Positions 40,952 through 53,398 of a stretch of DNA of 64,000 bases are shown in pieces. Origin of the DNA: Gemmatimonadales bacterium. GTDB taxonomy: Bacteria; Gemmatimonadota; Gemmatimonadetes; Gemmatimonadales; GWC2-71-9. The stretch spans positions 9,870 through 73,869 of the forward strand of contig DASUXW010000161.1 in NCBI GenBank assembly GCA_036377715.1, written 5' to 3'. Numbering within the stretch: the stretch's first letter is position 1; each line of letters starts with the position of its first letter. Below the pieces are notes generated by a model. That model worked only from the letters and a program-made list of their open reading frames with translations. It was not told where the DNA came from and made no database searches. Position numbers and translations under genes: made by a program.

Positions 40952-41617
40952 TCAGGCCGCCGGCGGAACGGGGATCGTGAAGCAGCACTGCGGGCGCGCT
41001 CCCTGCTCGCAGCACTGGCGCACGTCCGCGCCGGTCACGTCGGAGAGGAGTGCCTGCACCATCCGGCAGGTCTCCGGGCGACGGCTGACCGCAGCCGACA
41101 CGGGACAGCCGCAACCGCGGATCCGGTATCCCGTGCCGTCGGGCTCGAGGCTGGCATCGCCGCCGAGCTCATTGAGCAGGGCGACGGCCTGCCGGGCGCG
41201 TCCCTCGGGCGTATCCTCCCGGCGGTGTACGGCGGCGGCGAGCCGGTGGCCGACGGCGCGCAGCAGGTCTTCGGTCTGCTCCCGCGGGAAGCGGTTGGCC
41301 AACTCGTCGAGCAGTGCCCCCAGGACGGGCGCGTACGCACGCGACAGCCGGACCTCGACCTCGGGAGTAAGCTCGTAGATCGCCGCCGGTTTCCCGGCGC
41401 CCGCCCCGCGCCGCAGTCCGGCCTGCGTGACCAGCCCGTCCCGTTCGAGCGTCGCGAGGTGGGCCCGGATGGCGTTGTCAGTGAGATCCAGCTCGCGCGC
41501 AAGCTCCTCGACCGTACGCGGGCCGCGGCGGAGCAGGCTGAGCACCTGGCCCCGGGTCGTCTCCATGAAGCGTTTGGAAAGGTCGGTGGGCACCGCATCT
41601 CCGCAGTTGGCAGTCAC
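40952..41617 (-). CDS. ArsR-family HTH regulator with Cys-rich C-terminal domain
   Basis: 'RTVEELARELDLTDNAIRAHLATLERDGLV'. C-terminal 'GCGCPVS...CR...CCEQGARPQCC'. Confidence 0.8.
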   Translation of the reverse strand: MTANCGDAVPTDLSKRFMETTRGQVLSLLRRGPRTVEELARELDLTDNAIRAHLATLERDGLVTQAGLRRGAGAGKPAAIYELTPEVEVRLSRAYAPVLGALLDELANRFPREQTEDLLRAVGHRLAAAVHRREDTPEGRARQAVALLNELGGDASLEPDGTGYRIRGCGCPVSAAVSRRPETCRMVQALLSDVTGADVRQCCEQGARPQCCFTIPVPPAA

Positions 41618-41641
41618 TTGAATGTACGTGGGCCAGGCCCC

Positions 41642-41672
41642 TTGTCAACTAACTCAAGAAACATCTTGACAA
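41642..41672. promoter_or_regulatory. Inverted repeat TTGTCAA-N17-TTGACAA in the divergent ArsR/DUF4142 promoter region
   Basis: Read directly in a low-GC intergenic stretch. The right half-site coincides with a TTGACA -35-like hexamer. Confidence 0.4.
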
Positions 41673-41740
41673 ATTAGAGACATTTCGCAATCCTGAGTAC
41701 GCCGGGTACGCAGGCTCACCGCTCCACTCAGGAGGATGGA

Positions 41741-42322
41741 ATGCGCAGGTTGCACCTTATCGCTGCCGCAGGCATCGCTCTCCCGCTGCTCACCGCCGCG
41801 GCTGTCCACACCACCGATCCCGCCGCACCCCCGCTCGACGACCCCACGATCGTGGCCATCTTCGATGCCGCCAATACGGCAGATATCGAGACCGGTACCC
41901 TGGCCGCAGACCGCGGCGCGTCGCAGGAGGTCCGGCAATTCGGCGCCATGCTCGCTCGCGACCACAAGCAGGTTCGGCAGCAGGGCCGGGATCTCGCGGC
42001 CAAGCTGCACGTCACTCCCACGCCGCCGGCCGATGACCAGTCAGCCAAGGCGCACGCGGAGACGATGGCGAAGCTGCGCTCGCTCAAGGGCGCCGAGTTC
42101 GACCGCGCTTTCCTGGAGCACGAGTACACCTTCCACCGCGACGTGATCGACGCCATTCAGAAGACGCTGCTCCCCGCCATTCAGAACCCGGAGCTCAAGG
42201 CGCTGGTGGTGAAGGTCGCGCCGGCGTTCCAGGCCCACATGCAGATGGCGCAGCAGCTCGAAAAGCAGTTGGCGGAGAAGGGCTCGGACGCGCCCGCGAC
42301 GAACGCGGGGTACTCGCACTAG
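41741..42322 (+). CDS. DUF4142-domain secreted protein
   Basis: Signal peptide. 'AANTADIETGTLAADRG', 'FGAMLARDHKQ', 'FDRAFLEHEYTFHRDVID'. Confidence 0.8.
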   Translation: MRRLHLIAAAGIALPLLTAAAVHTTDPAAPPLDDPTIVAIFDAANTADIETGTLAADRGASQEVRQFGAMLARDHKQVRQQGRDLAAKLHVTPTPPADDQSAKAHAETMAKLRSLKGAEFDRAFLEHEYTFHRDVIDAIQKTLLPAIQNPELKALVVKVAPAFQAHMQMAQQLEKQLAEKGSDAPATNAGYSH

Positions 42323-42424
42323 CCGTTCCGGTCGGCGGGCGGGCGAATGCATTCGACGCCCGCCGCCGGCTGCCCCGCAAGCTTCCTTCACGCCCGCTTC
42401 CGTCCAGCTTCACCGGGCGGACCT

Positions 42425-43630
42425 ATGTTGGGACGGTCAAGCTTCCGGACCGGTCCGATGCGGGTTTCCATGTCGCTGCTCGCGCTCGTCCTCGCGCTCC
42501 CGTCCACGGCCGAGGCCATTCCCGCCTTTGCCCGCCGCTACAAGGTGAGCTGCCAGCTGTGCCACAACCCCGTCCCCAAGCTCACGGCGTTCGGCGAGCA
42601 GTTCGCCGCGAACGGCTTCCGCTTCGGGCCCAACGAGGTGCCGGCCGACACGTTGGCCACCGGCGACCCGCTGCTCACGCTGCTCCAGGAGGTCCCGATC
42701 GCGTTCAGGCTCGACGCCTACGTCCAGGAGTTCACCGGAGGGAAGGCGGTTACCGACTTTCAAACGCCCTATGCGCTCAAGCTGCTATCTGGGGCGCCGA
42801 TCTCCCGGAAGCTCTCCTACTACCTGTACGCGTTCCTCTTCGAGCGCGGCGAGGTGGGCGGGGTCGAGGACGCGTTCATCACGCTGAACGACATCGGGGG
42901 GAAGCCGGTGGACCTCACGGTCGGCCAGTTTCAGGTCTCCGACCCGATGTTCAAGCGCGAGCTCCGGCTCGAGTTCGAGGACTACGCGATCTACCGGGCA
43001 CGGATGGGCGACTCGCCCGTAGACCTGACTTACGACCGCGGGGTGGTCCTCAACGCCGACGTTCTGGGCTTCGGGCTTACCGGGCAGGCGGTGAACGGGA
43101 ACGGGCGTGGTCCGGCGCAGCCCAACCGGCGGTTCGACAACGATTTCGGCAAGAACCTCGCGCTGCACGCCACCCGCGACGTGATCCGGGGTCTCCGGGT
43201 GGGCGCGTTCGGCTATTTCGGGCGCACCACCGCCGACGAAATCGAGAACGAGACCACGATGCTGGGTTTCGACGCCACGGTGGAGCACGGTCCTTTCGAG
43301 TTCAACCTGCAGTATCTCCACCGGAACGACGACCGGCCCACCTTCACCTTCCCCTCGCCGCGAACGGACGTGGACGGCGGCCTCGCGGAACTGGTGGTGC
43401 GGCCGCCCCGCTCCCGCTGGCACGGCTTCGCGCTCTACAATCTGGTGAAGGCGGACACGCCGATTCTGAGCGTGCGCCTGGGTGAGCCGGGGCCGCTGCG
43501 TCGCTACGAGACGGTGACCGGCGGGGCGGGCTACCTGGTGCGGCGCAACTTCCGGATGACCGGCGAGGTGACCCAGGATCTGGTGCAGGGCCAGACCCGG
43601 TGGACCCTCGGATTCGTCTCGGCGTTCTGA
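42425..43630 (+). CDS. Predicted outer-membrane beta-barrel-like protein with an N-terminal CXXCH heme-binding motif
   Basis: Signal peptide. 'FARRYKVSCQLCHNPVPKLTAFGEQF'. Alternating beta-strand pattern; C-terminal 'WTLGFVSAF'. Confidence 0.65.
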   Translation: MLGRSSFRTGPMRVSMSLLALVLALPSTAEAIPAFARRYKVSCQLCHNPVPKLTAFGEQFAANGFRFGPNEVPADTLATGDPLLTLLQEVPIAFRLDAYVQEFTGGKAVTDFQTPYALKLLSGAPISRKLSYYLYAFLFERGEVGGVEDAFITLNDIGGKPVDLTVGQFQVSDPMFKRELRLEFEDYAIYRARMGDSPVDLTYDRGVVLNADVLGFGLTGQAVNGNGRGPAQPNRRFDNDFGKNLALHATRDVIRGLRVGAFGYFGRTTADEIENETTMLGFDATVEHGPFEFNLQYLHRNDDRPTFTFPSPRTDVDGGLAELVVRPPRSRWHGFALYNLVKADTPILSVRLGEPGPLRRYETVTGGAGYLVRRNFRMTGEVTQDLVQGQTRWTLGFVSAF

Positions 43631-43709
43631 GGCTCTCCCCGATTGAGACAACCGTCACACCGGGCGCCGGCGCATTGGGCCATCCTTCGACTTCAGGGAA
43701 GGAGACCGC

Positions 43710-44807
43710 ATGCCCACTACGACCCCCGACGTGCAGCTCACCCGTGAGCGTGTCCAGGAGGCGCTGGCCCGGGTTCACTACCCGGGGCTCACGCGTGACC
43801 TGGTCTCGTTCGGGATGGTGGAGCATGTCAGCGTCTGCGACGGGCGGGTGAAGGTGCGCCTCGCGCTTCGCACGCGAGACGAATCGGTTCCCGCGCGACT
43901 CCGCGCGAGCATTTCGGAAGCCCTGGTGCCGCTCGGTGCGACGGAGGTGTCGGTCGAGATCGTCGCGCCGGCACCAGCGCCGCAGGCGGTGCCGGCCCGT
44001 GCCGCTCCCGATCCCTGGGCGGAGCAGGCCCGGCTCGCGGCGGTGCGACACGTGATCGCCGTGGGGGCCGGCAAGGGCGGAGTGGGCAAGAGCACCGTCG
44101 CCGCGAACCTGGCGCTGCTGCTCGCCCGGGAAGGGCTCCGGGCCGGGCTGCTCGATGCCGACATCTACGGTCCGAGCCTGCCGCTCCTGCTCGGCATCGA
44201 GGACGGCGCGCAGCGGGTGCGCATGACGGCCGACAAATCCATCCAGCCGCTCGACGCGCACGGGCTCCCGCTCATCAGCTTCGGTTTCTTCCTGGGCGAA
44301 GGCTCGCCCGCCGTGTGGCGCGGGCCGATGGTGTCCAAGGCCGTAAAGCAGTTCGCGCGCGGCGTGGCCTGGCCGGAACTGGACGTCCTGGTGGTGGACC
44401 TCCCGCCCGGCACGGGCGACATCCCGTTGAGCCTGGCGCAGGCGATCGTGCTCTCCGGGGCCGTCGTCGTCACCCAGCCCGCGCGGGTGGCCGCCGCCGA
44501 GGCCCGCAAGGCCGCGGCGATGTTCCGAAGCCTCGAGGTGCCGGTGCTCGGGATCGTGGAGAACATGGCGGGCGCCTTCGGCCGCGGGGCGGGCAGCGCG
44601 ATCGCGGCAGAGCTGTCGGTGCCGTTTCTCGGCTCCGTTCCCTTCGATCCTTCGATGGTGGCCGAAGGCGACGCCGGGGCGCCGACCGTGCTGGCCCGGC
44701 CCGAGAGCGAGGCGACGCGGGCGCTCGCCGCAGTCGCGCACGGCGTCGCCGCGGGGCTGGGCTGGCGGCATGTCGCCGACGCGCCCGCGGCGGGAGGCGG
44801 GCGATGA
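43710..44807 (+). CDS. apbC: Mrp/ApbC/NBP35-type Fe-S cluster carrier ATPase with N-terminal DUF59
   Basis: 'VHYPGLTRDLVSFGMV', Walker A 'GKGGVGKSTVA', 'DLPPGTGD'. Confidence 0.9.
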   Translation: MPTTTPDVQLTRERVQEALARVHYPGLTRDLVSFGMVEHVSVCDGRVKVRLALRTRDESVPARLRASISEALVPLGATEVSVEIVAPAPAPQAVPARAAPDPWAEQARLAAVRHVIAVGAGKGGVGKSTVAANLALLLAREGLRAGLLDADIYGPSLPLLLGIEDGAQRVRMTADKSIQPLDAHGLPLISFGFFLGEGSPAVWRGPMVSKAVKQFARGVAWPELDVLVVDLPPGTGDIPLSLAQAIVLSGAVVVTQPARVAAAEARKAAAMFRSLEVPVLGIVENMAGAFGRGAGSAIAAELSVPFLGSVPFDPSMVAEGDAGAPTVLARPESEATRALAAVAHGVAAGLGWRHVADAPAAGGGR

Positions 44808-46117
44808 CGCCGGCGACCGCCACAGCACCGCCGCGCGCGCCCGTGGCCCCGATGGGCGGGGGCATCGCCCCCGCGGCCGGCTCGATTCGACTGGCCGCCG
44901 AGCACTTCGTCGCGGCGACGCTCTACCTGCTTGCGGGTGCCGTGGGGCTGGTGTGGATCGCGCCGGAGCTCGCGGCCGGTGCCTATCTCTCGCCGCACGT
45001 GGCCGGCATCACCCACCTTTTCACGCTGGGCTGGCTCACCACGACCGTGTTCGGCGCGCTGTGCCAGCTGCTGCCCGTGGCACTGGGGACGCCGGTGCGC
45101 TCCACGCGCGTCGCCCACGCGGCGTTCTGGGCATTCGCACCCGGTGTCGGGATCTTCGCCGCCGGCGTGGCGACCAACCGGACGATGCTCCACCACGGTG
45201 GCGTGCTGCTGGTGGCGGTCGGCATTCTGCTGGTGGCGGCGAACGTCGGGGCCGCGCTGCCGCGCGCCCGGACCCGTGACGTGACCTGGGCCGCCATCGC
45301 GCTGGCGCTCACCTATCTGGTCTCCACGCTCGTGCTCGGGATCGTGCTGCTGCACAACCTCCATACCGGCTTTCTTGGTGGGTCGCGCGTGAGCGTGCTC
45401 GCGAGCCATCTCCACGTCGCGATCGTCGGGTGGCTCCTGATCATGATCGTGGGCGTCTCGCACCGGCTGCTCCCGATGTTCCTGCTCGCGCACGGGGCCG
45501 ACACGTCATGGACCCGCCGCGCCCTCGGTCTGCTGGGGGCCGGTGTGCCGGTGCTGGCGCTGGGCCTCGGGCTGGCGCAGCCCGTGGCGGCATGGGCGGG
45601 CGCGGTGCTCCTCCTCGCCGGACTGGGCTGCTTCTACCGGCAGGTGTTTGCCTTCTTTCGTGCGCGGGTGCGCAAGCAGCTCGATGTCGGAATGCGCTTT
45701 GCCGCCACCGCGCTGGCGTTCCTCGCGGCGAGCGCGATCCTGGGACCGGTGACGCTCGCCTGGGGCGGCTCGAACCCGCGGCTCGGGACGGTGTACGTGC
45801 TCGCCGGGCTGCTGGGCGGGATCGTGCTCTTCGTGATCGGATTCTTCTACAAGATCGTGCCGATGCTCGCCTGGACGGCGCACTTCCGGGGACGGATGGG
45901 GAAGGGACCCGTGCCCACGGTCGCCCAGCTCTACTCGGCGAGACTCGCCCACGTACAGCTCGGGCTGATGGGCGCTGGCGTGCTCGGCCTGGTCGCGAGC
46001 ACCGCGGCGGGGTGGGCACACGGCGCCCGCTGCGGGGCGGTGCTCTTCCTGGCCGGCGTGGTGGTCTTTCTGATTCAGCTCGCCCGCGTGGCGCGCGGGC
46101 AGAAGGTGGCGGCATGA
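44804..46117 (+). CDS. Polytopic membrane protein with heme-copper-oxidase-subunit-I-like His pattern
   Basis: About 12 hydrophobic segments. Conserved-looking 'ITHLFTLGW', 'LHHGG', 'SHLHVAIVGW', 'VSHRLLPMF'. ATGA overlap with the Mrp gene. Confidence 0.6.
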   Translation: MTPATATAPPRAPVAPMGGGIAPAAGSIRLAAEHFVAATLYLLAGAVGLVWIAPELAAGAYLSPHVAGITHLFTLGWLTTTVFGALCQLLPVALGTPVRSTRVAHAAFWAFAPGVGIFAAGVATNRTMLHHGGVLLVAVGILLVAANVGAALPRARTRDVTWAAIALALTYLVSTLVLGIVLLHNLHTGFLGGSRVSVLASHLHVAIVGWLLIMIVGVSHRLLPMFLLAHGADTSWTRRALGLLGAGVPVLALGLGLAQPVAAWAGAVLLLAGLGCFYRQVFAFFRARVRKQLDVGMRFAATALAFLAASAILGPVTLAWGGSNPRLGTVYVLAGLLGGIVLFVIGFFYKIVPMLAWTAHFRGRMGKGPVPTVAQLYSARLAHVQLGLMGAGVLGLVASTAAGWAHGARCGAVLFLAGVVVFLIQLARVARGQKVAA

Positions 46118-46971
46118 GCAAGACCGGGACGGCTCCGATTCAGGCGAGCGACAGGGTGAGCGACGTGCTGGCGCGCGACGAGGCGCTGGTGGAGGTGTTC
46201 GTGCGGCAGTCGCCCCACTTCATCAAGCTCCGGAACCGGGCGCTCCGACGGGTGATGGCGCGGCTGGTCACGGTGGAGGACGCGGCGAAGATCGCCGGGA
46301 TCGCGCCGGCCGGACTCGTAGGCGAGCTGAACGCTGCGCTTGGGATCGAGCCCGCGAGGGGCGCCGCGAGCCCGGCTGGTGCAGCCGGTCAGACCGCCTT
46401 GGAGTCGGTGCGCACGCAGGCCGGAGCGGGGCGCCCCGCCGGTGCGCCGGTGGTCGAGGTGGACGTCCGGGAGGACCTCCGGGCGGGGCGGGAGCCGTTC
46501 TCGAAGATCATGGCCGCGGTGAGCGGGCTCGCCTCCGGTGAGGTACTGCAGCTCCGTGCGACGTTCGAGCCTGCGCCGCTCTACGCGGTGCTCGGCAAGC
46601 GAGGTTTCGTGCACGAGACGCACAACGACGGACCGGATGACTGGTCCGTCTACTTCTGGCGAGCAGAGTCGGGGGGAGCATCCGCTGGCGGTTCCACGGC
46701 CGTGTCCCCTCCCGCGCCGGCCGCGAGCGAAGCCGGACTGAATACCGGGCCCGGCACGTTGCAGCTCGACGTGCGCGGGCTCGAGCCGCCCGAGCCGATG
46801 CAGCGAACGCTCGAGGCCCTCGAGGGACTGCCGCCCGGGCACACGCTAGTTCAGATCAACGTGCGTGTCCCGCAGTTCCTGCTCCCGATCCTCGCTGAGC
46901 GAGGGTACGAGTGGGAGATCGATGAGTCGGCGGCGGATCGCGTTCTCGTGCGAATCCGCCGGCGGGGGTGA
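46114..46971 (+). CDS. DUF1858 + two DUF2249 domains
   Basis: 'VSDVLARDEALVEVFVRQSPHF...VTVEDAAKIAGI'. 'VEVDVREDLRAGREPFSKIM', 'LQLDVRGLEPPEPMQRTLEALEGLPPG'. Confidence 0.7.
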   Translation: MSKTGTAPIQASDRVSDVLARDEALVEVFVRQSPHFIKLRNRALRRVMARLVTVEDAAKIAGIAPAGLVGELNAALGIEPARGAASPAGAAGQTALESVRTQAGAGRPAGAPVVEVDVREDLRAGREPFSKIMAAVSGLASGEVLQLRATFEPAPLYAVLGKRGFVHETHNDGPDDWSVYFWRAESGGASAGGSTAVSPPAPAASEAGLNTGPGTLQLDVRGLEPPEPMQRTLEALEGLPPGHTLVQINVRVPQFLLPILAERGYEWEIDESAADRVLVRIRRRG

Positions 46972-47023
46972 ACCGCGTCACCCGGCTCGCTTCACGTCTT
47001 CAGGCAGGGAGAACTCCGAACGC

Positions 47024-47257
47024 ATGTCCACGCCGCCGCTCGAGCTCGACGTTCGCGCCATTCCGCCGCGCGAGAAGCACCCGGCCATCTTCTGCACCTT
47101 CGGTGGCCTCGCGATCGGCCAGGCGATGGTGATCATCAACGACCACGATCCGCGTCCGCTGCGCTACCAGTTCATGGCCGAGCACCCCGAGGGGTTCGAC
47201 TGGCAGTACGAAGAACAGGGGCCGACGGTCTGGCGGGTGCGTATCAGCCGCCGATGA
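47024..47257 (+). CDS. DUF2249-domain protein
   Basis: 'LELDVRAIPPREKHPAIFCTFGGLAIGQAMVIINDHDPRPL'. Confidence 0.75.
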   Translation: MSTPPLELDVRAIPPREKHPAIFCTFGGLAIGQAMVIINDHDPRPLRYQFMAEHPEGFDWQYEEQGPTVWRVRISRR

Positions 47258-47799
47258 ACGCGCGCACATGGATCGCGACCGCCGCGCTGGCCGCCACGAT
47301 CGGGATGCCGGCGCCGGGCGTGGCCCAGGCGGAGCATGCCCATGGAACCGGACTCGAAGTGCCCGCCTCGATCGAGGCCGAGCATCGGGAGATCCAAGCC
47401 GCGCTCGAGGCCGCCACGCGTGAGCCGGGCCGAGTCGGCGCCGCGGCGCGGGCCCTCGCGAAGGTGCTCGACCCCCACTTCGTCCGCGAGGAGCAGATCG
47501 CGCTGCCGCCGCTCGGTCTGCTCGGGCCGCTGGCCGCGGGCGAGCGCCCGGCGGGGATGGCCACGGCGCTCGCGATGAGCGATTCGCTCCGGCACGAGCT
47601 GCCCCGGATGCTCGAAGAGCACGGCCAGATCCGCCGCGCGGTCGCGGCCCTGCGCGCGGCGGCGCGCGAGGCGCACGCCGTCGAGGCGGAGCGCCTGGCG
47701 GAGGAGCTGGCGCTGCACGCGCAGACCGAGGAGCAGGTGCTGTACCCGGCGGCCGTGCTGGCGGGCGACGTGATCCGGGCACGGCAGGCGGGCCGGTGA
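47254..47799 (+). CDS. Hemerythrin-like (HHE cation-binding) protein with signal peptide
   Basis: 'IEAEHREIQAALE', 'LEEHGQIRR', 'HAQTEEQVLYP'. N-terminus 'MNARTWIATAALAATIGMPAPGVAQA'. Confidence 0.7.
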   Translation: MNARTWIATAALAATIGMPAPGVAQAEHAHGTGLEVPASIEAEHREIQAALEAATREPGRVGAAARALAKVLDPHFVREEQIALPPLGLLGPLAAGERPAGMATALAMSDSLRHELPRMLEEHGQIRRAVAALRAAAREAHAVEAERLAEELALHAQTEEQVLYPAAVLAGDVIRARQAGR

Positions 47800-47815
47800 G
47801 CACCCGGGCCGGCGC

Positions 47816-48547
47816 CTAGGCTTCGCCTTCGTCGTAGCGCGGGCGCTCCCCCGGCCGGGCGAGCGTCCTGAGGCGCGCGACGTCGGGGAGCAGCAGCCTG
47901 CGCCGGCCCAGCTCCAGGACGAGGCCCTTCTCCCGGAGCTGCCTGAAGGCACGAGACACCGACTCGCGCGCGGTGCCGAGCTCGACCGAGAGCGCCTGCC
48001 GCGTTCGGTCGAGGGTGACCACCACCCCGTCGGCGCGCGGGACGCCGCTCTGCTCGGCCAGGCCGGCGAGATACAAGGCCAGCCGCGCCGCGACGTCGCG
48101 GAAGGCGAGCGTCTGGGTGAGCTGGACGAAGTGGCGGAGGCGGCGGCCGAGATCGCGGATGATCGCTTCGGCGACGTCCGGATTGGCGCGGTAGAGCGCC
48201 TCGAACTCGGCCCGGGGCACGAAGAGCAGCTCGCTCTCTTCCTCGGTGATGGCGGAGGCGGGATAGGGTCCGCCATCGAAGAGCGGCAACTCGGCCACGG
48301 CCTGGCCTGGGCCTTCGGTGTGGAGCACCTGCTCGCGGCCCGACGGGCTCGCGCGGTAGATGCGCACCCGGCCCGAGGCGACGACGTACAGCCCGCGGTA
48401 CGGCTCGCCGGCCGTGAAGAGCGGGCTTCCGACGGGATGGCATCGGAGCACGCTCCGGCGGGCCAGCCGCTGCAGCGCCGCCTCGTCGAATTCGGCGAAC
48501 AGCGGGAGCCGTCGGAGCAGCGCGACGGGATCGGCGGCAGGGGTCAT
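47816..48547 (-). CDS. Crp/Fnr-family transcriptional regulator
   Basis: cNMP-binding 'FTAGEPYRGLYVVASGRVRIY'. HTH 'TRQALSVELGTARESVSRAFRQLREKGLV'. Confidence 0.9.
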   Translation of the reverse strand: MTPAADPVALLRRLPLFAEFDEAALQRLARRSVLRCHPVGSPLFTAGEPYRGLYVVASGRVRIYRASPSGREQVLHTEGPGQAVAELPLFDGGPYPASAITEEESELLFVPRAEFEALYRANPDVAEAIIRDLGRRLRHFVQLTQTLAFRDVAARLALYLAGLAEQSGVPRADGVVVTLDRTRQALSVELGTARESVSRAFRQLREKGLVLELGRRRLLLPDVARLRTLARPGERPRYDEGEA

Positions 48548-48574
48548 GGACCCAATCTAGACGGAGCCGGAACC

Positions 48575-48868
48575 ATGAGTGAGACGGAAAGCGAAGATCC
48601 GCGCACGGACGCGTTGCGCCAGGCGCTCACGACGGTGATCGACCCGGAGATCGGGCTCGACATCATCACCCTCGGACTGGTGTACGAGCTGGAGGTGCGG
48701 GACGATGTCGCGCGGGTGGTGCACACCCTGACGACGCCCGGCTGTCCGATGGAGCGGATCATCACGGACGGGATTCGGAGCGCCGCGGGGATGGTCGAGG
48801 GAGTGCGGCGGGTAGAGACCGAGCTGGTGTGGGAGCCGGCGTGGCATCCGGGGATGATCGCCCGTTGA
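48575..48868 (+). CDS. DUF59/MIP18-family Fe-S assembly protein (SufT/PaaD-like)
   Basis: 'VIDPEIGLDIITLGLVY', 'LTTPGCPM'. Confidence 0.85.
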   Translation: MSETESEDPRTDALRQALTTVIDPEIGLDIITLGLVYELEVRDDVARVVHTLTTPGCPMERIITDGIRSAAGMVEGVRRVETELVWEPAWHPGMIAR

Positions 48869-49069: not shown

Positions 49070-49128
49070 CTTGCAGCGCTCCGCTCGGCTTGCGCAACCC
49101 CTTGTGCAGTCTTACGTTTGCTGTCCCC

Positions 49129-49199
<71 letters not shown>

Positions 49200-49208
49200 C
49201 TCCGTCCG

Positions 49209-51326
49209 ATGCACGACCACGACAGCCATTCCGACCATCATCACCATCGTCCGGCCCCGCCATCGGGGCCGGCGCCGGCCGAGCCGGGCTATCCGGAGCA
49301 CCCGGAGACGCACGCGGCGGAGCACGGCGGCGGCCATGCGGGCCACGACAAGCACGCTGGCCACTCCGTCGCGATGTTCCGCGACAAGTTCTGGCTCTCC
49401 CTGCTCCTGACCATCCCGACGCTCGTCTGGGGGCACATGCTCCCGCGAGCGCTGGGCTACACGCGGCCGCCGTTTCCCGGCTCCCATCTGATCGCGCCGC
49501 TCTTCGGCACGGCGGTGTTCCTGTACGGCGGACGGCCGTTCATCCAGGGCGCCGCGAGGGAGTTGCGCGACCGGCTGCCCGGGATGATGACGCTGATCGC
49601 GCTCGCGATCACCGTCGCCTTCGTCTTCAGCGCCGCCGTCACGCTGGGCTGGCCCGGCATGCCGCTCTGGGAGGAGCTGGCCACACTGGTGACGATCATG
49701 CTCCTGGGCCACTGGATCGAGATGCGGAGCATCACCCAGGCGCAGGGGGCGCTGGCCGAGCTGGCGAAGCTGCTGCCCAATACGGCGGTTCGGATCGCCC
49801 GTGAGGGAAGTACCGAGCGCATGGAGGACGTACCGCTCACCGCGCTGGCCCACGGCGATCTGGTGCTGGTTCGGCCGGGCGCCAGCGTGCCGGCCGACGG
49901 CCAGGTCCGCGAGGGGCACAGCAGCGTCAACGAGTCGATGCTCACCGGCGAATCCCGGCCGGTCGAGAAGCATCCCGGCGACCGGGTCATCGCCGGCACC
50001 GTGAACCAAGCGGGCTCGCTCCGCGTCGAGGTCACGGGAACCGGCGAGCGGACCACGCTGGCCGGGATCATGCGCCTGGTGGACCAGGCGCAGAGCTCGC
50101 GCTCCCGGGCGCAGGCGCTCGCGGATCGCGCGGCCTTCTGGCTCACCATCATCGCGCTCGTGGCCGGCGCGGTCACGTTGATCGCCTGGCTCGCCGCCGG
50201 GGCGAGCGGGGCGTATGCGGTCGAACGCCTCGTCACCGTGCTGGTCATCGCCTGCCCCCACGCGCTCGGCCTCGCGGTGCCGCTGGTGATCGCGATCTCG
50301 ACCACGCTCGGGGCGCGCAGCGGCCTCCTCGTGCGCGACCGCCGCGGATTGGAAGAGGCGAGGCACCTGGACGCGGTGGTGTTCGACAAGACCGGCACCC
50401 TGACGCTGGGAGAGCATCGGGTGGTCGGCCTCAGGGCGGCCGGCGGTCTCACGGAGGACGATGCGCTCCGGCTGGCCGCCGCGGTCGAGCAGGATGCCGA
50501 GCATCCGGTCGGGCGCGCGATCGTGAGCAGCGCCGCGGCGCGCGGGCTCCAGGTTCCGCGCGCGACGGACTTCGAGGCGATCGCCGGACACGGCGTCCGG
50601 GCCACCGTCGCTGGTCGGCGGCTCGAGGTGGGCGGACCCAATCTGATCCGTCGCGACAACGTCGCGATGCCTGCCGAGCTGGAAGCGTTCGCGGACGAGG
50701 CAGCCGGACGCGGACAGAGCGTCGTCTATCTGGTCGGTGACGGCGATGCGCTCGCCGCCTTCACGGTGGCGGATGCGATCCGACCCGAATCGGCGGAAGC
50801 GGTTCGCCGGCTGCATGCGCAGGGTCTGCAGGTGGTCATGCTCACCGGGGACGCTCGTGCCGTCGCCGAGGCGGTCGGCCGCGAGCTGGGGATCGACACC
50901 ATCTATGCGCAGGTGCTCCCGGAGCAGAAGGTGGAGCGGATTCGGGAGCTCCAGCGGGCGGGCAAGCGGGTCGCCATGGTCGGCGACGGCGTGAACGATG
51001 CGCCGGCGCTGGTGACGGCCGACGTGGGTATCGCGATCGGCGCCGGCACCGACGTGGCGGTGGAGGCGGGCGACGTGGTCCTGGTCCGGAGCGATCCGCG
51101 CGACGTCCCGCGCATCGTCCAGCTCTCCCGCGCGAGCTACCGCAAGATGGTCCAGAACCTCTGGTGGGCCGCCGGGTACAACATCGTGGCGATGCCGCTC
51201 GCGGCCGGGGTGCTGGCGTCGGAAGGCATCGTCCTGTCGCCGGCGGTCGGCGCCATCCTGATGTCGCTCAGTACCGTCATCGTCGCGGTGAACGCGCAGC
51301 TCCTTCGGCGGGTGCGGCTCGGGTGA
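49209..51326 (+). CDS. copB: P1B-type heavy-metal ATPase, CopB-like (His-rich N-terminus, CPH motif)
   Basis: '[13 protein letters not shown]', 'TGESRPV', 'ACPHALGLA', 'DKTGTLT', '[10 protein letters not shown]'. Confidence 0.9.
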
Positions 51327-51338
51327 GCCCGGGCTGAC

Positions 51339-51499
51339 TCACCACGGAAGCACGGAAGGCACGGAAGTGACACGGAAGGGGCGTCGGAGCAGTTCAGGGA
51401 GCGGAGCCCACGACGACATGCTTGTTGTTGTCACACGGAACCGTCCCGCCCCGGGGAACCTTCGGTGTCACCGCCGTGCCTTCCGCGCTTCCGTGGTGA
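51339..51499. repeat. Long inverted repeat of CACGGAAG-type tandem units (~41-nt arms, ~76-nt loop)
   Basis: Left arm TCACCACGGAAGCACGGAAGGCACGGAAGTGACACGGAAGG. Reverse complement of the right arm is TCACCACGGAAGCGCGGAAGGCACGGCGGTGACACCGAAGG (4 mismatches). Confidence 0.85.
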
Positions 51500-52815
51500 C
51501 TGGACAGGAGCGCGGGGCGGAGACGGGCGAAGACCGCGACTCCCACCGGCGTGCGGCTACCGTACGCCGGCTCAAGCGCGTCCGGGACCAGGTTGACCGC
51601 CGCCCGAGTCCCGACGCCGAGCGTGGCCCCCTGGAAGGCGGCGAACTCGCGAACGTAGCCGAGCGACAGGGTGCCGGTATCGAACTCCTCATCTGCTGCG
51701 CCGGGAATCACCAGGTCCTCGGCACTCTTCCGCACGTACTCGATTCGACCGAACACGGTGTTGGCCCGGTCGAGCTGCAGGTTCGATTCGGCCATCAGGC
51801 TATGCTCCCAGCCGCCGCCCTCGCCGCCGCGCGGCACGTGCTCGTTGCCCCCGTAGATCAGGGCGGACGCCCACTCGCCCGCGTTGCCGAACCGCAGGGT
51901 GTGCAGAACGGACGCGCCGAGGCGGCGCTGATCTTCGTCCGGATGGAGTGCCTCGGGCCGGACGAGATAGCCGTAGCTCGCGCTCAGCGCCCAACGCGAG
52001 GTCGGGTTCGCCGACACCCGGAAGCCGTACGAGTCGAGCGGGTGAAAGTCGAAGTCGTACCGGTCCTCATCGGGCTCCCGGCCGTTGAAGAGGGTGGCTT
52101 CGAGCTTCACGCTTCGGGTGAACACCCCCGCCGTCAGCACGCCGTAGGTAATGTGGGTGGCGTCGGTCCAGTGGTGCGGCAGCGGCGCGAACGGGTCGTT
52201 GAGCGCCGATGGGCGGTGCATGTATGCAACCGGTCCGATCCCGGGCTCGCCCACGGGGGCGGCGTAGACGACGACGCCGAGGCGGCGTGAGACCGGCCGC
52301 TCGTACATCGCCGACAGCTCCATGAAGAGGTCGTGCGGATGCTGCCGATCGTGGAGCGGTGCGCCCCGGTAGGATTCGCCGCTCTGCAGGAGCAGCGGAT
52401 AACCTCCCGCCCCGATCGTGAGCGGCTCGGCGCTCATCATCCCGTGGAGGTGCAGCGTGCCGGCGCCCAGCGGTCGCATGGCCATGAGCATCGCCCAGTT
52501 GATGCTGCCGAGCTGGTCGTCGCCGCGCGCCCCGCCCTGATGGTCGTACTGCAGAAAGGCATCGCCGTGCACCATCAACATCCAGCGCCCGGCGGTGAAG
52601 TGCCATGCGCGCATTCCCGAGGCGTCGGGAAGCCAGGCGGTGCCGGAACCCATGCGGGTCATCGGGATCCCGAGCGGACGCACGGGCATGTCCGGCATCG
52701 CGGGCATGGCGCTGGAATCGTGGTGCTCGTGGCCGACCTGCGCTGACAGGCTGCACGCCGGAAGCACGGGGCCGGCGGTCGCGAGGACGATCGGAAGGAC
52801 CAGACAACGGGCCAT
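51394..52815 (-). CDS. Secreted/outer-membrane protein with His/Met-rich N-terminus (putative copper-related)
   Basis: Signal peptide 'MARCLVLPIVLATAGPVLPAC'. 'GHEHHDSSAMPAMPDMP'. Beta-rich body. The last ~34 codons run into the repeat element. Confidence 0.6.
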   Translation of the reverse strand: MARCLVLPIVLATAGPVLPACSLSAQVGHEHHDSSAMPAMPDMPVRPLGIPMTRMGSGTAWLPDASGMRAWHFTAGRWMLMVHGDAFLQYDHQGGARGDDQLGSINWAMLMAMRPLGAGTLHLHGMMSAEPLTIGAGGYPLLLQSGESYRGAPLHDRQHPHDLFMELSAMYERPVSRRLGVVVYAAPVGEPGIGPVAYMHRPSALNDPFAPLPHHWTDATHITYGVLTAGVFTRSVKLEATLFNGREPDEDRYDFDFHPLDSYGFRVSANPTSRWALSASYGYLVRPEALHPDEDQRRLGASVLHTLRFGNAGEWASALIYGGNEHVPRGGEGGGWEHSLMAESNLQLDRANTVFGRIEYVRKSAEDLVIPGAADEEFDTGTLSLGYVREFAAFQGATLGVGTRAAVNLVPDALEPAYGSRTPVGVAVFARLRPALLSSHHGSAEGTAVTPKVPRGGTVPCDNNKHVVVGSAP

Positions 52816-52951
52816 CCCCCGTGCGATTGCCGGCGCCGGCCGCCGGCCCGCGGCTCCATCGAGGGGGAGTTTTCCACCCGTGTGACCGAACTCACCGTGG
52901 CCACCGCGCTGCGTCCGCATACTGGATTCTCGCCGGCACCCAGCGTGAGGT

Positions 52952-53398
52952 ATGCCCGTGTTCGTCTCCCCGAGATCGACCCGCCGCATCCTCACGCTCC
53001 TCCCCTTCCTCTTCTCACTGACCGCCTGCGGCCCGAAGCCGCCCCGGAAGCAGCTCGACAAGCATGGCAAGTCGGTGGCGTCATGGGCGGCGACTGCGGA
53101 GATGGTCGCCACCGCCTGGCTCCGCGGCGACGTGCCGACCGACTACGCCCGGCAGACGCTCCAGAGCGGCGCGAAACAGGTCGAGCGCGCGCGCAGCTCG
53201 CTCGCCCAGGTCGCCGCGGGCGATTCGCTGGCCGAGGCGGCGGTCGAGGCGTACGGCCGGCTGGCCGATCGGCTGACCCGGATGACCGCCGCACTCCAGC
53301 AGAATGATCGCTCGGCCGTGGAGCAGTCGACCGATCGGCTCCCCAGCGAAGCACAACGCATCCGGGCCCTGCGAGGGCACGTTCGGCCCGGTGCATGA
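52952..53398 (+). CDS. Hypothetical lipoprotein
   Basis: Lipobox 'LFSLTACG'. Helical body. Confidence 0.55.
   Translation: MPVFVSPRSTRRILTLLPFLFSLTACGPKPPRKQLDKHGKSVASWAATAEMVATAWLRGDVPTDYARQTLQSGAKQVERARSSLAQVAAGDSLAEAAVEAYGRLADRLTRMTAALQQNDRSAVEQSTDRLPSEAQRIRALRGHVRPGA

Follow-up and report, generated by a model that had tools for sequence, protein, structure and literature searches.

An oxidase-like membrane protein with two invariant histidines is encoded with DUF59 and DUF2249 proteins in a Gemmatimonadales gene cluster

The gene cluster

This analysis concerns a cluster of seven genes at positions 43710–48868 of a 64-kb stretch of DNA (the window) from contig DASUXW010000161.1 of a Gemmatimonadales bacterium (GCA_036377715.1). 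The G+C content of the window is ~70 %, and the nearest relatives of its genes are in metagenome-assembled Gemmatimonadales and Gemmatimonadaceae genomes. One of the seven genes encodes a 437-aa membrane protein (44804–46117, + strand) that has the fold of subunit I of the haem-copper oxidases (HCO) and lacks most of the oxidase metal ligands. From the comparisons described below, it is well supported that the cluster represents, in Gemmatimonadales, a conserved module that is accessory to nitrogen oxide (N-oxide) respiration.

The membrane protein was recognised from a family profile and a predicted fold, and the remaining genes from the list of open reading frames (ORFs) and from searches of the Pfam and NCBIfam models. 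Immediately upstream lies a gene for an Mrp-like protein with FeS_assembly_P and ParA/NUBPL domains (43710–44807, + strand), and downstream on the same strand are genes for a protein with one DUF1858 and two DUF2249 domains (46114–46971), a protein consisting of a single DUF2249 domain (47024–47257) and a hemerythrin (47254–47799). We refer to the two DUF2249 proteins as DrpB-type and DrpA-type, respectively, after their Thermus relatives. A Crp/Fnr-family regulator gene with cNMP_binding and HTH_Crp_2 domains follows on the opposite strand (47816–48547, − strand), and a stand-alone DUF59 gene (FeS_assembly_P; 48575–48868, + strand) completes the set. A predicted operator, GAGACAACCGTCAC, one mismatch from GTGAC-N4-GTCAC, precedes the first gene (43645–43658).

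An earlier reading of the window, made from the sequence only and without database searches, had listed the same seven genes at these coordinates, and its description of the junctions also holds. The ATGA overlaps at 44804, 46114 and 47254 can be read directly in the sequence, the gap between the DrpB-type and DrpA-type genes is 52 nt (46972–47023), which had been given as ~50 nt, and 27 nt (48548–48574) separate the start codons of the divergent regulator and DUF59 genes. Hence, both the Mrp-like ATPase and the DrpB-type protein are translationally coupled with the membrane protein gene, and the hemerythrin with the DrpA-type gene. As the earlier reading proposed, the genes form a coupled unit, and this unit is conserved in relatives. 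A scan of the window for sigma-70 promoters found none, as expected at 70 % G+C, and none of the five terminator-like matches in the window lies at a gene end.

The oxidase-like membrane protein

Searches with the single sequence of the membrane protein returned no match in Pfam, NCBIfam or the PDB sequences and, hence, its relationships are visible only by way of a family profile and a predicted structure. The family is nevertheless large: of 1.84 billion cluster representatives searched, 1,920 matched at E ≤0.001. Only four columns, namely H71, G76, H202 and G209, are invariant when 62 diverse homologues are aligned, and H71 in transmembrane (TM) helix 2 and H202 in TM6 are the sole invariant histidines. 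In the PDB the family profile matched only CcoN of the cbb3 oxidase (E 2.7e-08), and in this match tH-LftLGW aligns with HvHagaLGW of CcoN, placing H71 on the second histidine of HvH, which is the ligand of the low-spin haem b in cbb3 oxidases. When NorB of Rhizobium etli was compared using hhalign, H71 fell on the conserved histidine of the NorB TM2 region, which is the haem b ligand of the nitric oxide (NO) reductase (NOR).

The AlphaFold (AF2) model built from the alignment has a predicted local distance difference test score (pLDDT) of 94.3, a predicted template modelling score (pTM) of 0.92 and 12 TM helices. When it was compared with the PDB using Foldseek, the top 23 matches were all to subunit I of an HCO or NOR (E 4.7e-08 to 4e-03), with query-normalised TM-scores of 0.59–0.74 for all except two quinol-dependent NOR (qNOR) entries, and the match that followed had a probability of only 0.21. 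The protein thus has the 12-TM subunit I fold with its three-fold pseudosymmetry, and the label heme-copper-oxidase-like, which the sequence-only reading had given it, is correct at the level of fold and superfamily.

The same cannot be said of the metal ligands. Catalytic subunits of HCOs and NORs carry six canonical histidine ligands, of which TM2 and TM6 supply one each and TM7 and TM10 a pair each; here, invariant counterparts exist for just two. In both the sequence and the model, TM7 includes no histidine and, thus, no HH pair, and TM10 has no H-x-H motif and only the non-conserved H360. The membrane protein has therefore lost the ligands of the binuclear centre and one of the usual haem-ligand helices. 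Nor is a subunit II or III, NorC or a quinol-binding extension encoded. With only two invariant histidines, the protein is not an oxidase or NO reductase, and a catalytic role of either kind was rejected on the basis of the missing metal ligands.

H71 and H202 each lie 7–10 residues into an even-numbered helix, within the first third of that helix, and by analogy with oxidases the even-numbered helices should begin at the periplasmic face and run inward. Conserved residues also lie in the predicted cytoplasmic loops, namely R286 and R288 between TM8 and TM9 and W357...VP between TM10 and TM11. The simplest reading of the two histidines, we infer, is a single bis-His haem near the periplasmic face.

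Membrane proteins with HCO homology (HCOH) and three evolutionary units are the subject of a paper by Pei, Li, Kinch and Grishin (Protein Sci 2014), and are reported to combine 12 TM helices, remote similarity to HCOs, two conserved histidines and a context linked to denitrification. All of these are found for the window protein and its homologues, and a single haem near the periplasmic face would agree with the HCOH families. The existence and topic of the Pei et al. 2014 paper are confirmed by papers that cite it.

The Mrp-like ATPase, DUF59 and hemerythrin proteins

The Mrp-like protein matches the Pfam models ParA/NUBPL (1.7e-79) and, via its N-terminal DUF59-like domain, FeS_assembly_P (5.7e-09). 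The Walker A motif (GKGGVGKS) is intact, as in the deviant-Walker-A ATPases of the Mrp/NBP35 class, and the protein aligns over its whole length with ApbC (8zkc, 224.9 bits). However, an 11-residue gap falls exactly at the loop that includes the CxxC motif (...ENMSvhiCsnCGhhepiFG... in 8zkc, with equivalents in 2ph1 and 3kb1), where the window protein reads ENMAGAFGRGAG. The motif is also missing from all 62 of the cluster-linked orthologues, each of which reads VENMxGxFGxGxG, and the only cysteine in the window protein is a non-canonical one. The score of 262.7 bits also falls short of the NCBIfam ApbC equivalog cut-off (348 bits). The protein was not accepted as a canonical ApbC iron–sulfur (Fe-S) carrier, the loss of the CxxC loop being the reason. 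An Mrp-type ATPase without Fe-S-binding cysteines argues against simple Fe-S transfer. Coupling of a cysteine-less ATPase of this type to the oxidase-like gene was seen only in the Gemmatimonadota loci examined, and the only Mrp found near a more distant oxidase-like gene (L147) retains a CPEC motif.

The stand-alone DUF59 protein (FeS_assembly_P, 2.7e-17) includes both the VIDPEIG and TTPGCP motifs and is SufT-like. It shares 40 % identity with a DUF59 protein of Thermus, the gene of which is translationally coupled to that for the oxidase-like protein there. It did not reach the NCBIfam cut-offs for SUF_assoc and SufT and, hence, is not an equivalog from the SUF system. The sequence-only reading had the set bracketed by two Fe-S carrier-type proteins, a description that is weakened by the loss of the CxxC motif from the Mrp-like protein and its orthologues.

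The hemerythrin (Pfam, 8.8e-11) has visible HxxxE and H ligand motifs, as in hemerythrin-like di-iron proteins, and its N-terminus, MNARTWIATAALAATIGMPAPGVAQA|E, resembles a signal peptide. It had been called secreted in the earlier reading; an exported protein is suggested by this N-terminus, and export is apparent to the extent that both of the orthologues found (L048 and L050) carry a similar one. Among 81 Gemmatimonadota loci, hemerythrin copies were present only in the window and in these two, all three with a hydrophobic N-terminus, and in other loci ScdA_N plus a cupin stands in its place. The iron-protein accessory therefore varies, with ScdA_N plus a cupin common. The hemerythrin is not a RIC/YtfE/ScdA protein, as it scores 21.5 bits against a cut-off of 204.7 bits and the DUF1858 domain is found instead on the DrpB-type protein.

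The DUF2249 proteins

The DrpB-type protein matches DUF1858 (4.8e-09), DUF2249 (7.8e-38, in two stretches) and TusA (34.1 bits, cut-off 28.6 bits), and shares 39 % identity over its full length with Thermus DrpB (E 3e-48). The DrpA-type protein matches DUF2249 (2e-30) and is 63 % identical to Thermus DrpA (E 1e-35), so that a single DUF2249 protein stands beside one with DUF1858 and two DUF2249 domains, as it does in Thermus. Among the Gemmatimonadota loci, the motifs P-x-E-[RK]-H and DH[DE]P are kept in 50 of the 63 single-domain copies, the window DrpA-type protein included, and are missing from 58 of the 65 multi-domain copies. The DUF2249 domains of the window DrpB-type protein are degenerate and TusA-like, though the TusA motif reads PPEP instead of CPxP and the protein contains no cysteine at all. 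Sulfur-transfer chemistry of the TusA type is therefore excluded. No solved structure for a DUF2249 protein was found by sequence, and the DUF2249 fold is given by the Pfam TusA match.

Though the sequence-only reading held that no DUF2249 component has a defined function, this is outdated, as genetic phenotypes are available for drpA and drpB of Thermus (PMC6282519). Expression of drpAB there depends on DnrT, and when drpAB is lost the nar and dnr operons become independent of nitrate (PMC6282519). In the double mutant the nitrate reductase protein is made and has little activity, and DrpB is membrane-associated and has no DNA-binding motif (PMC6282519). Elsewhere, COG4309 (DUF2249) and nor were predicted to share NnrR and NsrR regulons (Rodionov et al. 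2005, PMC1274295), and DUF2249 genes of Haloferax are induced under denitrifying conditions, with log2 fold changes of 3.2–8.7 (PMC11218638).

The 52-nt gap that separates the DrpB-type from the DrpA-type gene holds a perfect palindrome, GGTGAACCGCGTCACC (46967–46982), which overlaps the DrpB-type stop codon and is one mismatch from the box of the regulator described below. It was considered as an internal operator and set aside, as no copy was found in L003 or L004, the closest relatives.

The regulator and its predicted operator

The regulator (cNMP_binding, 1.4e-23; HTH_Crp_2, 2.6e-13) did not reach the cut-off of any NCBIfam equivalog. Its best relatives in the PDB are CRP of Mycobacterium tuberculosis and GlxR (E ~3e-28), with DNR at 3.9e-15, and its recognition helix, RESVSR, is CRP-like. 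However, its phosphate-binding cassette reads GPYPASA, compared to GPRTSSA in M. tuberculosis CRP, with Tyr-Pro replacing Arg-Thr. Tyr-Pro in place of the Arg-Ser/Thr of the cassette makes binding of cyclic AMP (cAMP) unlikely. The regulator thus fits CRP in its recognition helix and in the box described below, which agrees with the CRP target TGTGA-N6-TCACA, and differs from it in the cAMP-binding cassette. It includes a single cysteine and no N-terminal cysteine cluster of the Fnr type.

The sequence-only reading had linked the regulator to the Dnr/NnrR type and suggested a search for Fnr/Dnr-type boxes, and the features compared here do not support that type. No copy of TTGAT-N4-ATCAA with one mismatch or less is present in the window, and the only match near the cluster with two mismatches is inside the DrpA-type coding region. 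The conserved box is instead of the CRP type. In the 81 Gemmatimonadota loci, GTGA-N6-TCAC occurs at 3.2–3.6 sites per kb in the 240 bp around the starts of the crp and DUF59 genes, against 0.077 per kb in these loci overall. Such a site accompanies 38 of 49 crp genes and 40 of 47 DUF59 genes. The consensus is cGTGAC-nGTT-GTCACa, and in the usual gene arrangement the centre of the box is mostly 50–70 bp upstream of the crp start. With CRP and GlxR closer than DNR and a box of this type, the regulator does not belong with DNR/NnrR by sequence or by target site.

In the window, the 27-bp junction between the crp and DUF59 genes includes no box of the GTGA-N6-TCAC type, and the GTGAC-N4-GTCAC-type site GAGACAACCGTCAC is centred 58.5 bp upstream of the start codon of the Mrp-like gene. 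An identical sequence is found upstream of the Mrp-like gene in L002–L004, and a one-base variant in L005. When a position weight matrix (PWM) built from 55 sites in other loci was used to score both strands of the whole window, GAGACAACCGTCAC obtained the best score (16.0 bits, compared to 8.9 bits for the next). The CRP-like regulator probably activates the operon from this GTGAC-N4-GTCAC-type box. Were the leader ~17 nt long, the site would occupy a class-II position near −41.5.

Conservation of the linkage

The linkage was examined in the 81 Gemmatimonadota loci and in 80 distant loci, the latter obtained by scanning metagenomes with another subfamily of the oxidase-like protein. An alignment of 17 sequences was used to find the loci, as the alignment of 62 was too diverse. 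The frequency of neighbours was determined within 4 kb of the oxidase-like gene and only for loci with at least 2.5 kb of flanking sequence on both sides (n=53 for Gemmatimonadota and n=30 for the distant set). DUF2249 genes are neighbours in 92 % of the Gemmatimonadota loci and 73 % of the distant ones, and the corresponding values are 83 % and 0 % for the Mrp-like gene, 68 % and 100 % for stand-alone DUF59, 66 % and 27 % for Crp, and 19 % and 33 % for any N-oxide reductase gene. In all 30 of the distant loci the DUF59 gene directly adjoins the oxidase-like gene, which points to a physical complex of their products.

In the Gemmatimonadota loci, two of which (L006 and L022) are labelled Gemmatimonas aurantiaca, the genes almost always follow the order Mrp-like, oxidase-like, DrpB, DrpA. 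There, crp and DUF59 are paired divergently, usually upstream and with crp co-directional with the operon; in the window, as in L003 and L004, which are most closely related to it, the pair is downstream instead. The sequence-only reading had named a lack of conservation outside this genome as one ground for refuting it, and the linkage is clearly conserved. Its statement that such genes co-occur with NO and denitrification genes also stands, given the Thermus nar, R. etli nor/nirK and Azospirillum norCB clusters described below and the presence of nirK, norB/C, nosZ or narH within ~8 kb in 28 of the 81 Gemmatimonadota loci.

Two further loci, L084 and L085 (~45 % identity), include genes for the oxidase-like protein, DUF59, DrpB, DrpA, a protein of ~250 aa and another DUF2249 protein, with RIC, FTR1, a small oxidase-like protein, CopD, Crp and cupin variously as extras. 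The ~250-aa protein, which has no Pfam match, is conserved between the two DUF2249 genes in both (L084 11881–12642 and L085 11909–12649). In L084, genes for an FTR1 iron permease and a full ScdA_N-hemerythrin (RIC) protein adjoin the module.

Comparison with known systems

The closest parallel with genetic data is in Thermus, where drpA and drpB lie immediately downstream of nar (narCGHJIK) in the nitrate-respiration element (Chahlafi et al. 2018, PMC6282519). In Thermus thermophilus plasmid pTHTHE1601, the order is narGHJI-K, a 72-aa and a 273-aa DUF2249 protein (which match drpA and drpB), a 144-aa protein, a protoglobin, a 383-aa hypothetical protein and a 'metal-sulfur cluster assembly factor'. 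The window shares DrpA and DrpB with this cluster, including the DUF1858 plus two DUF2249 architecture of DrpB, and the 383-aa protein is homologous to the oxidase-like protein (hhalign E 5e-46), its gene overlapping that for DUF59 by 4 nt. In contrast to the window, drpA precedes drpB in Thermus, the cluster follows straight after nar and includes a protoglobin and a single-unit HCO-like protein, and there is no Mrp-like ATPase, hemerythrin or adjacent CRP-like regulator, DnrS and DnrT regulating instead. The window, for its part, has no nar genes.

The 144-aa protein of pTHTHE1601 is a membrane protein that includes HVHAGLVGF and is encoded, together with the protein with a protoglobin domain, between drpB and the oxidase-like gene (L082 7524–8800). 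Judged by this motif, it is probably a single-unit oxidase-like protein. A small COX1-like gene similar to it is present in L085.

On plasmid p42f of R. etli, the order is norCBQD, hemN, DUF2249, oxidase-like, two DUF2249, DUF59, nnrS and nirK, followed further on by crp/fnr and nnrU. Four protein families are shared with the window, and the oxidase-like proteins are 26 % identical (E 6e-21) with both H71 and H202 conserved. The R. etli operon differs in being embedded in nor/nir genes, in including no DUF1858 domain, Mrp-like ATPase or hemerythrin, and in being presumably under the control of NnrR (box TTGcg-N4-cgCAA). In Azospirillum brasilense p4, norC and norB are followed by genes for DUF2249, oxidase-like and hemerythrin proteins.

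Two groups of membrane proteins are similar. With the HCOH proteins, as reportedly described, the window protein shares the 12 TM helices, detection only by profile or fold, the two conserved histidines and a context of denitrification or NO genes together with DUF2249. However, coupling to an Mrp-type ATPase without CxxC and a CRP-type operator were not found described for them in the literature. NnrS is a haem- and copper-containing membrane protein of the NnrR, NsrR and NorR regulons. It likewise has 12 TM helices, is distant kin of the oxidases and is encoded near nir/nor genes under NO-responsive regulators, and R. etli has both proteins within 2 kb. However, the window protein does not match the NnrS model (it matches no Pfam family at E ≤0.01), and NnrS is not accompanied by DUF59 and DUF2249 partners.

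The Mrp-like ATPase resembles the Mrp/ApbC/NBP35/HCF101 carriers in having an N-terminal DUF59 domain and a deviant-Walker-A ATPase. It differs in the deletion of the cluster-bridging CxxC loop, and thereby resembles cysteine-less metal-insertion ATPases such as HypB (3vx3). The 'P-loop NTPase' of the nar operon on Haloferax mediterranei pHME322 (L088 8070–9383) is a DUF59-Mrp-DUF2249 fusion that keeps a CPSC motif (PMC11218638 for the fusion), and its existence speaks for Mrp-type ATPases and DUF2249 being functionally linked. Beside it, a 408-aa hypothetical protein is a marginal relative of the oxidase-like family that lacks the two histidines.

Interpretation

The module most likely consists of a membrane haem protein, under the control of the regulator and accompanied by soluble partners, that would support N-oxide respiration or resistance to nitrosative stress. 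As to how it may work, we give about an even chance to the following. The membrane protein, most likely by binding one bis-His haem b, would be a membrane-bound receiver that reacts with NO or O2 or is redox-active, and DUF59 domains would dock on it. Through DrpA, DrpB and the ATPase, its state would be coupled to the maturation or protection of the iron-containing centres of N-oxide reductases, to the regulation of these enzymes, or to both, and the CRP-like regulator, seemingly unable to bind cAMP, would activate the operon from its box.

Several observations weigh against this explanation. No nitrate, nitrite, NO or N2O reductase genes (nar, nir, nor, nos) are present in the 64-kb window and, hence, the client enzymes, if there are any, are encoded elsewhere or absent. 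The haem is deduced from just the two histidines. The site GAGACAACCGTCAC has one mismatch and its 16.0 bits are below the score of every site used to build the PWM (minimum 17.1 bits), and the regulator gene lies within 4 kb in only 27–66 % of loci. Finally, the authors of the Thermus study read DrpA and DrpB as a nitrate sensor and not as a maturation system (PMC6282519).

An extension of that last view is the alternative to which we give most weight, though we consider it unlikely, namely that the module is purely for signalling. Like the model proposed for Thermus DrpA/DrpB acting on DnrS/DnrT (PMC6282519), it would have the membrane protein and DrpA/DrpB sense nitrate, nitrite or NO and control the CRP-like regulator through protein-protein contact, with no part in cofactor maturation. 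The nitrate-independent expression of nar and dnr after loss of drpAB, the membrane association of a DrpB that has no DNA-binding motif and, here, a regulator without a cAMP-type pocket that is encoded beside the module and has a conserved box all fit such a model. It leaves aside that the most tightly linked partner, DUF59 (30 of 30 distant loci), belongs to a metal-cluster-assembly family, that an ATPase of the metallocentre-assembly class is translationally coupled in Gemmatimonadales, that the Thermus mutants also produce an inactive nitrate reductase, and that the regulator is absent from many loci. The Fe-S carrier or repair function put forward in the sequence-only reading, with Mrp and DUF59 handing over clusters after damage by NO or O2 and a RIC-like di-iron protein assisting, is somewhat less probable again. 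DUF59 does keep its conserved cysteine motif, the two halves of RIC/YtfE (ScdA_N/DUF1858 and hemerythrin) are in the neighbourhood, a full RIC gene adjoins the module in L084, and the Haloferax Mrp-DUF2249 fusion keeps CxxC. However, the Mrp-like ATPase has no CxxC loop and only one, non-canonical cysteine, as do the 62 orthologues, the DrpB-type protein has no cysteine, the hemerythrin looks to be exported, away from cytoplasmic Fe-S proteins, and falls far short of the RIC model (21.5 vs 204.7 bits), and the universally conserved membrane protein would be left without a role.

Trafficking or homeostasis of iron or copper ranks lower still, and we regard it as improbable. Here the membrane protein would transport or reduce metal destined for proteins of the periplasm or membrane, and the association with denitrification would only mirror how much metal those enzymes require. 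In its favour are the ArsR-family regulator, DUF4142 protein and His-rich P-type ATPase encoded near the cluster in the window, the FTR1 iron permease genes in L084, L096, L063 and L067 and CopD/DUF4149 in L085, and the fact that the Mrp/MinD-class ATPases without CxxC include the Ni-inserting HypB (3vx3). Such neighbours, however, vary and are mostly outside the conserved core, and the membrane protein has no transporter-like signature, its fold matching only oxidases and NO reductases. That match, together with weak PF00115 matches in some homologues, might be taken as a sign of a divergent terminal oxidase or NO reductase. This is very improbable, given that four of the six canonical ligands, among them the TM7 HH pair and the TM10 H-x-H, have no conserved counterpart, that the partner subunits and the quinol-binding extension are lacking, and that a real norCB adjoins the homologue in both Azospirillum and R. 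etli.

A more speculative version of the maturation role, which we think doubtful and no likelier than Fe-S repair, makes the membrane protein a catalytically dead 'pseudo-oxidase', a membrane platform for an ATP-driven chaperone set (DUF59, DrpA, DrpB and the DUF59-headed ATPase of the Mrp type without CxxC), which would insert iron or haem centres into N-oxide reductases or repair them. If true, a metallocentre-assembly system that had gone unrecognised would stand alongside NorQD or CcoGHIS, and it would explain the inactive nitrate reductase of the Thermus drpAB mutants.

Relation to published work

The Thermus genetics and the association of DUF2249 with oxidase-like proteins and nor genes are already in the literature, the link between DUF2249 and the oxidase-like proteins going back to Pei et al. 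2014, as cited in PMC11218638. As far as we found, the pairing of the oxidase-like gene with DUF59, quantified here as near-obligate, and the coupling of a cysteine-less Mrp-type ATPase to the oxidase-like gene in Gemmatimonadales are new, as are a CRP-type regulator with a defined predicted operator and an apparently exported variant of the hemerythrin.

Despite the work in Thermus, few uncharacterised proteins encoded near denitrification genes of bacteria and archaea are conserved as consistently as the DUF2249, DUF59 and oxidase-like proteins. The signal of the regulator, once identified, could reveal what the whole module responds to. If the module is needed for active N-oxide reductases, this would bear on how fluxes of N2O and NO are understood and predicted, with the Gemmatimonadota, a phylum common in soils, among the groups concerned.

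Neighbouring features

Just upstream of the predicted operator (42347–43630, + strand) is a gene for a 427-aa protein with no match in Pfam or NCBIfam. Its N-terminus is signal-like, CQLCH provides a single haem c motif (CxxCH) and the C-terminus reads ...GFVSAF, so that it looks like a haem-carrying outer-membrane beta-barrel. The gene is syntenic in L002–L005 and adjoins the hemerythrin gene in L048 and L050, and its product may belong to the module as an accessory in the periplasm or outer membrane. Further upstream (40952–42322), and likewise syntenic in L002–L005, are genes for an ArsR-family regulator (− strand) and a DUF4142/DUF305-like protein (+ strand); DUF4142 is also encoded near the oxidase-like gene in L044, L056 and the distant locus L085.

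Downstream, the sole match in an Rfam scan of the window was to a tRNA. This tRNA-Cys (GCA) gene (49129–49200, + strand) lies between the DUF59 gene and that for the P-type ATPase, within an ORF with a TTG start that was listed mechanically (49071–51326). The ATPase therefore probably starts at the ATG at 49209, which would make its N-terminus His-rich. Beyond it is a gene for a 572-aa protein without a Pfam match (51394–53112, − strand), a homologue of which is encoded between DUF59 and the P-type ATPase in L003 and L004.

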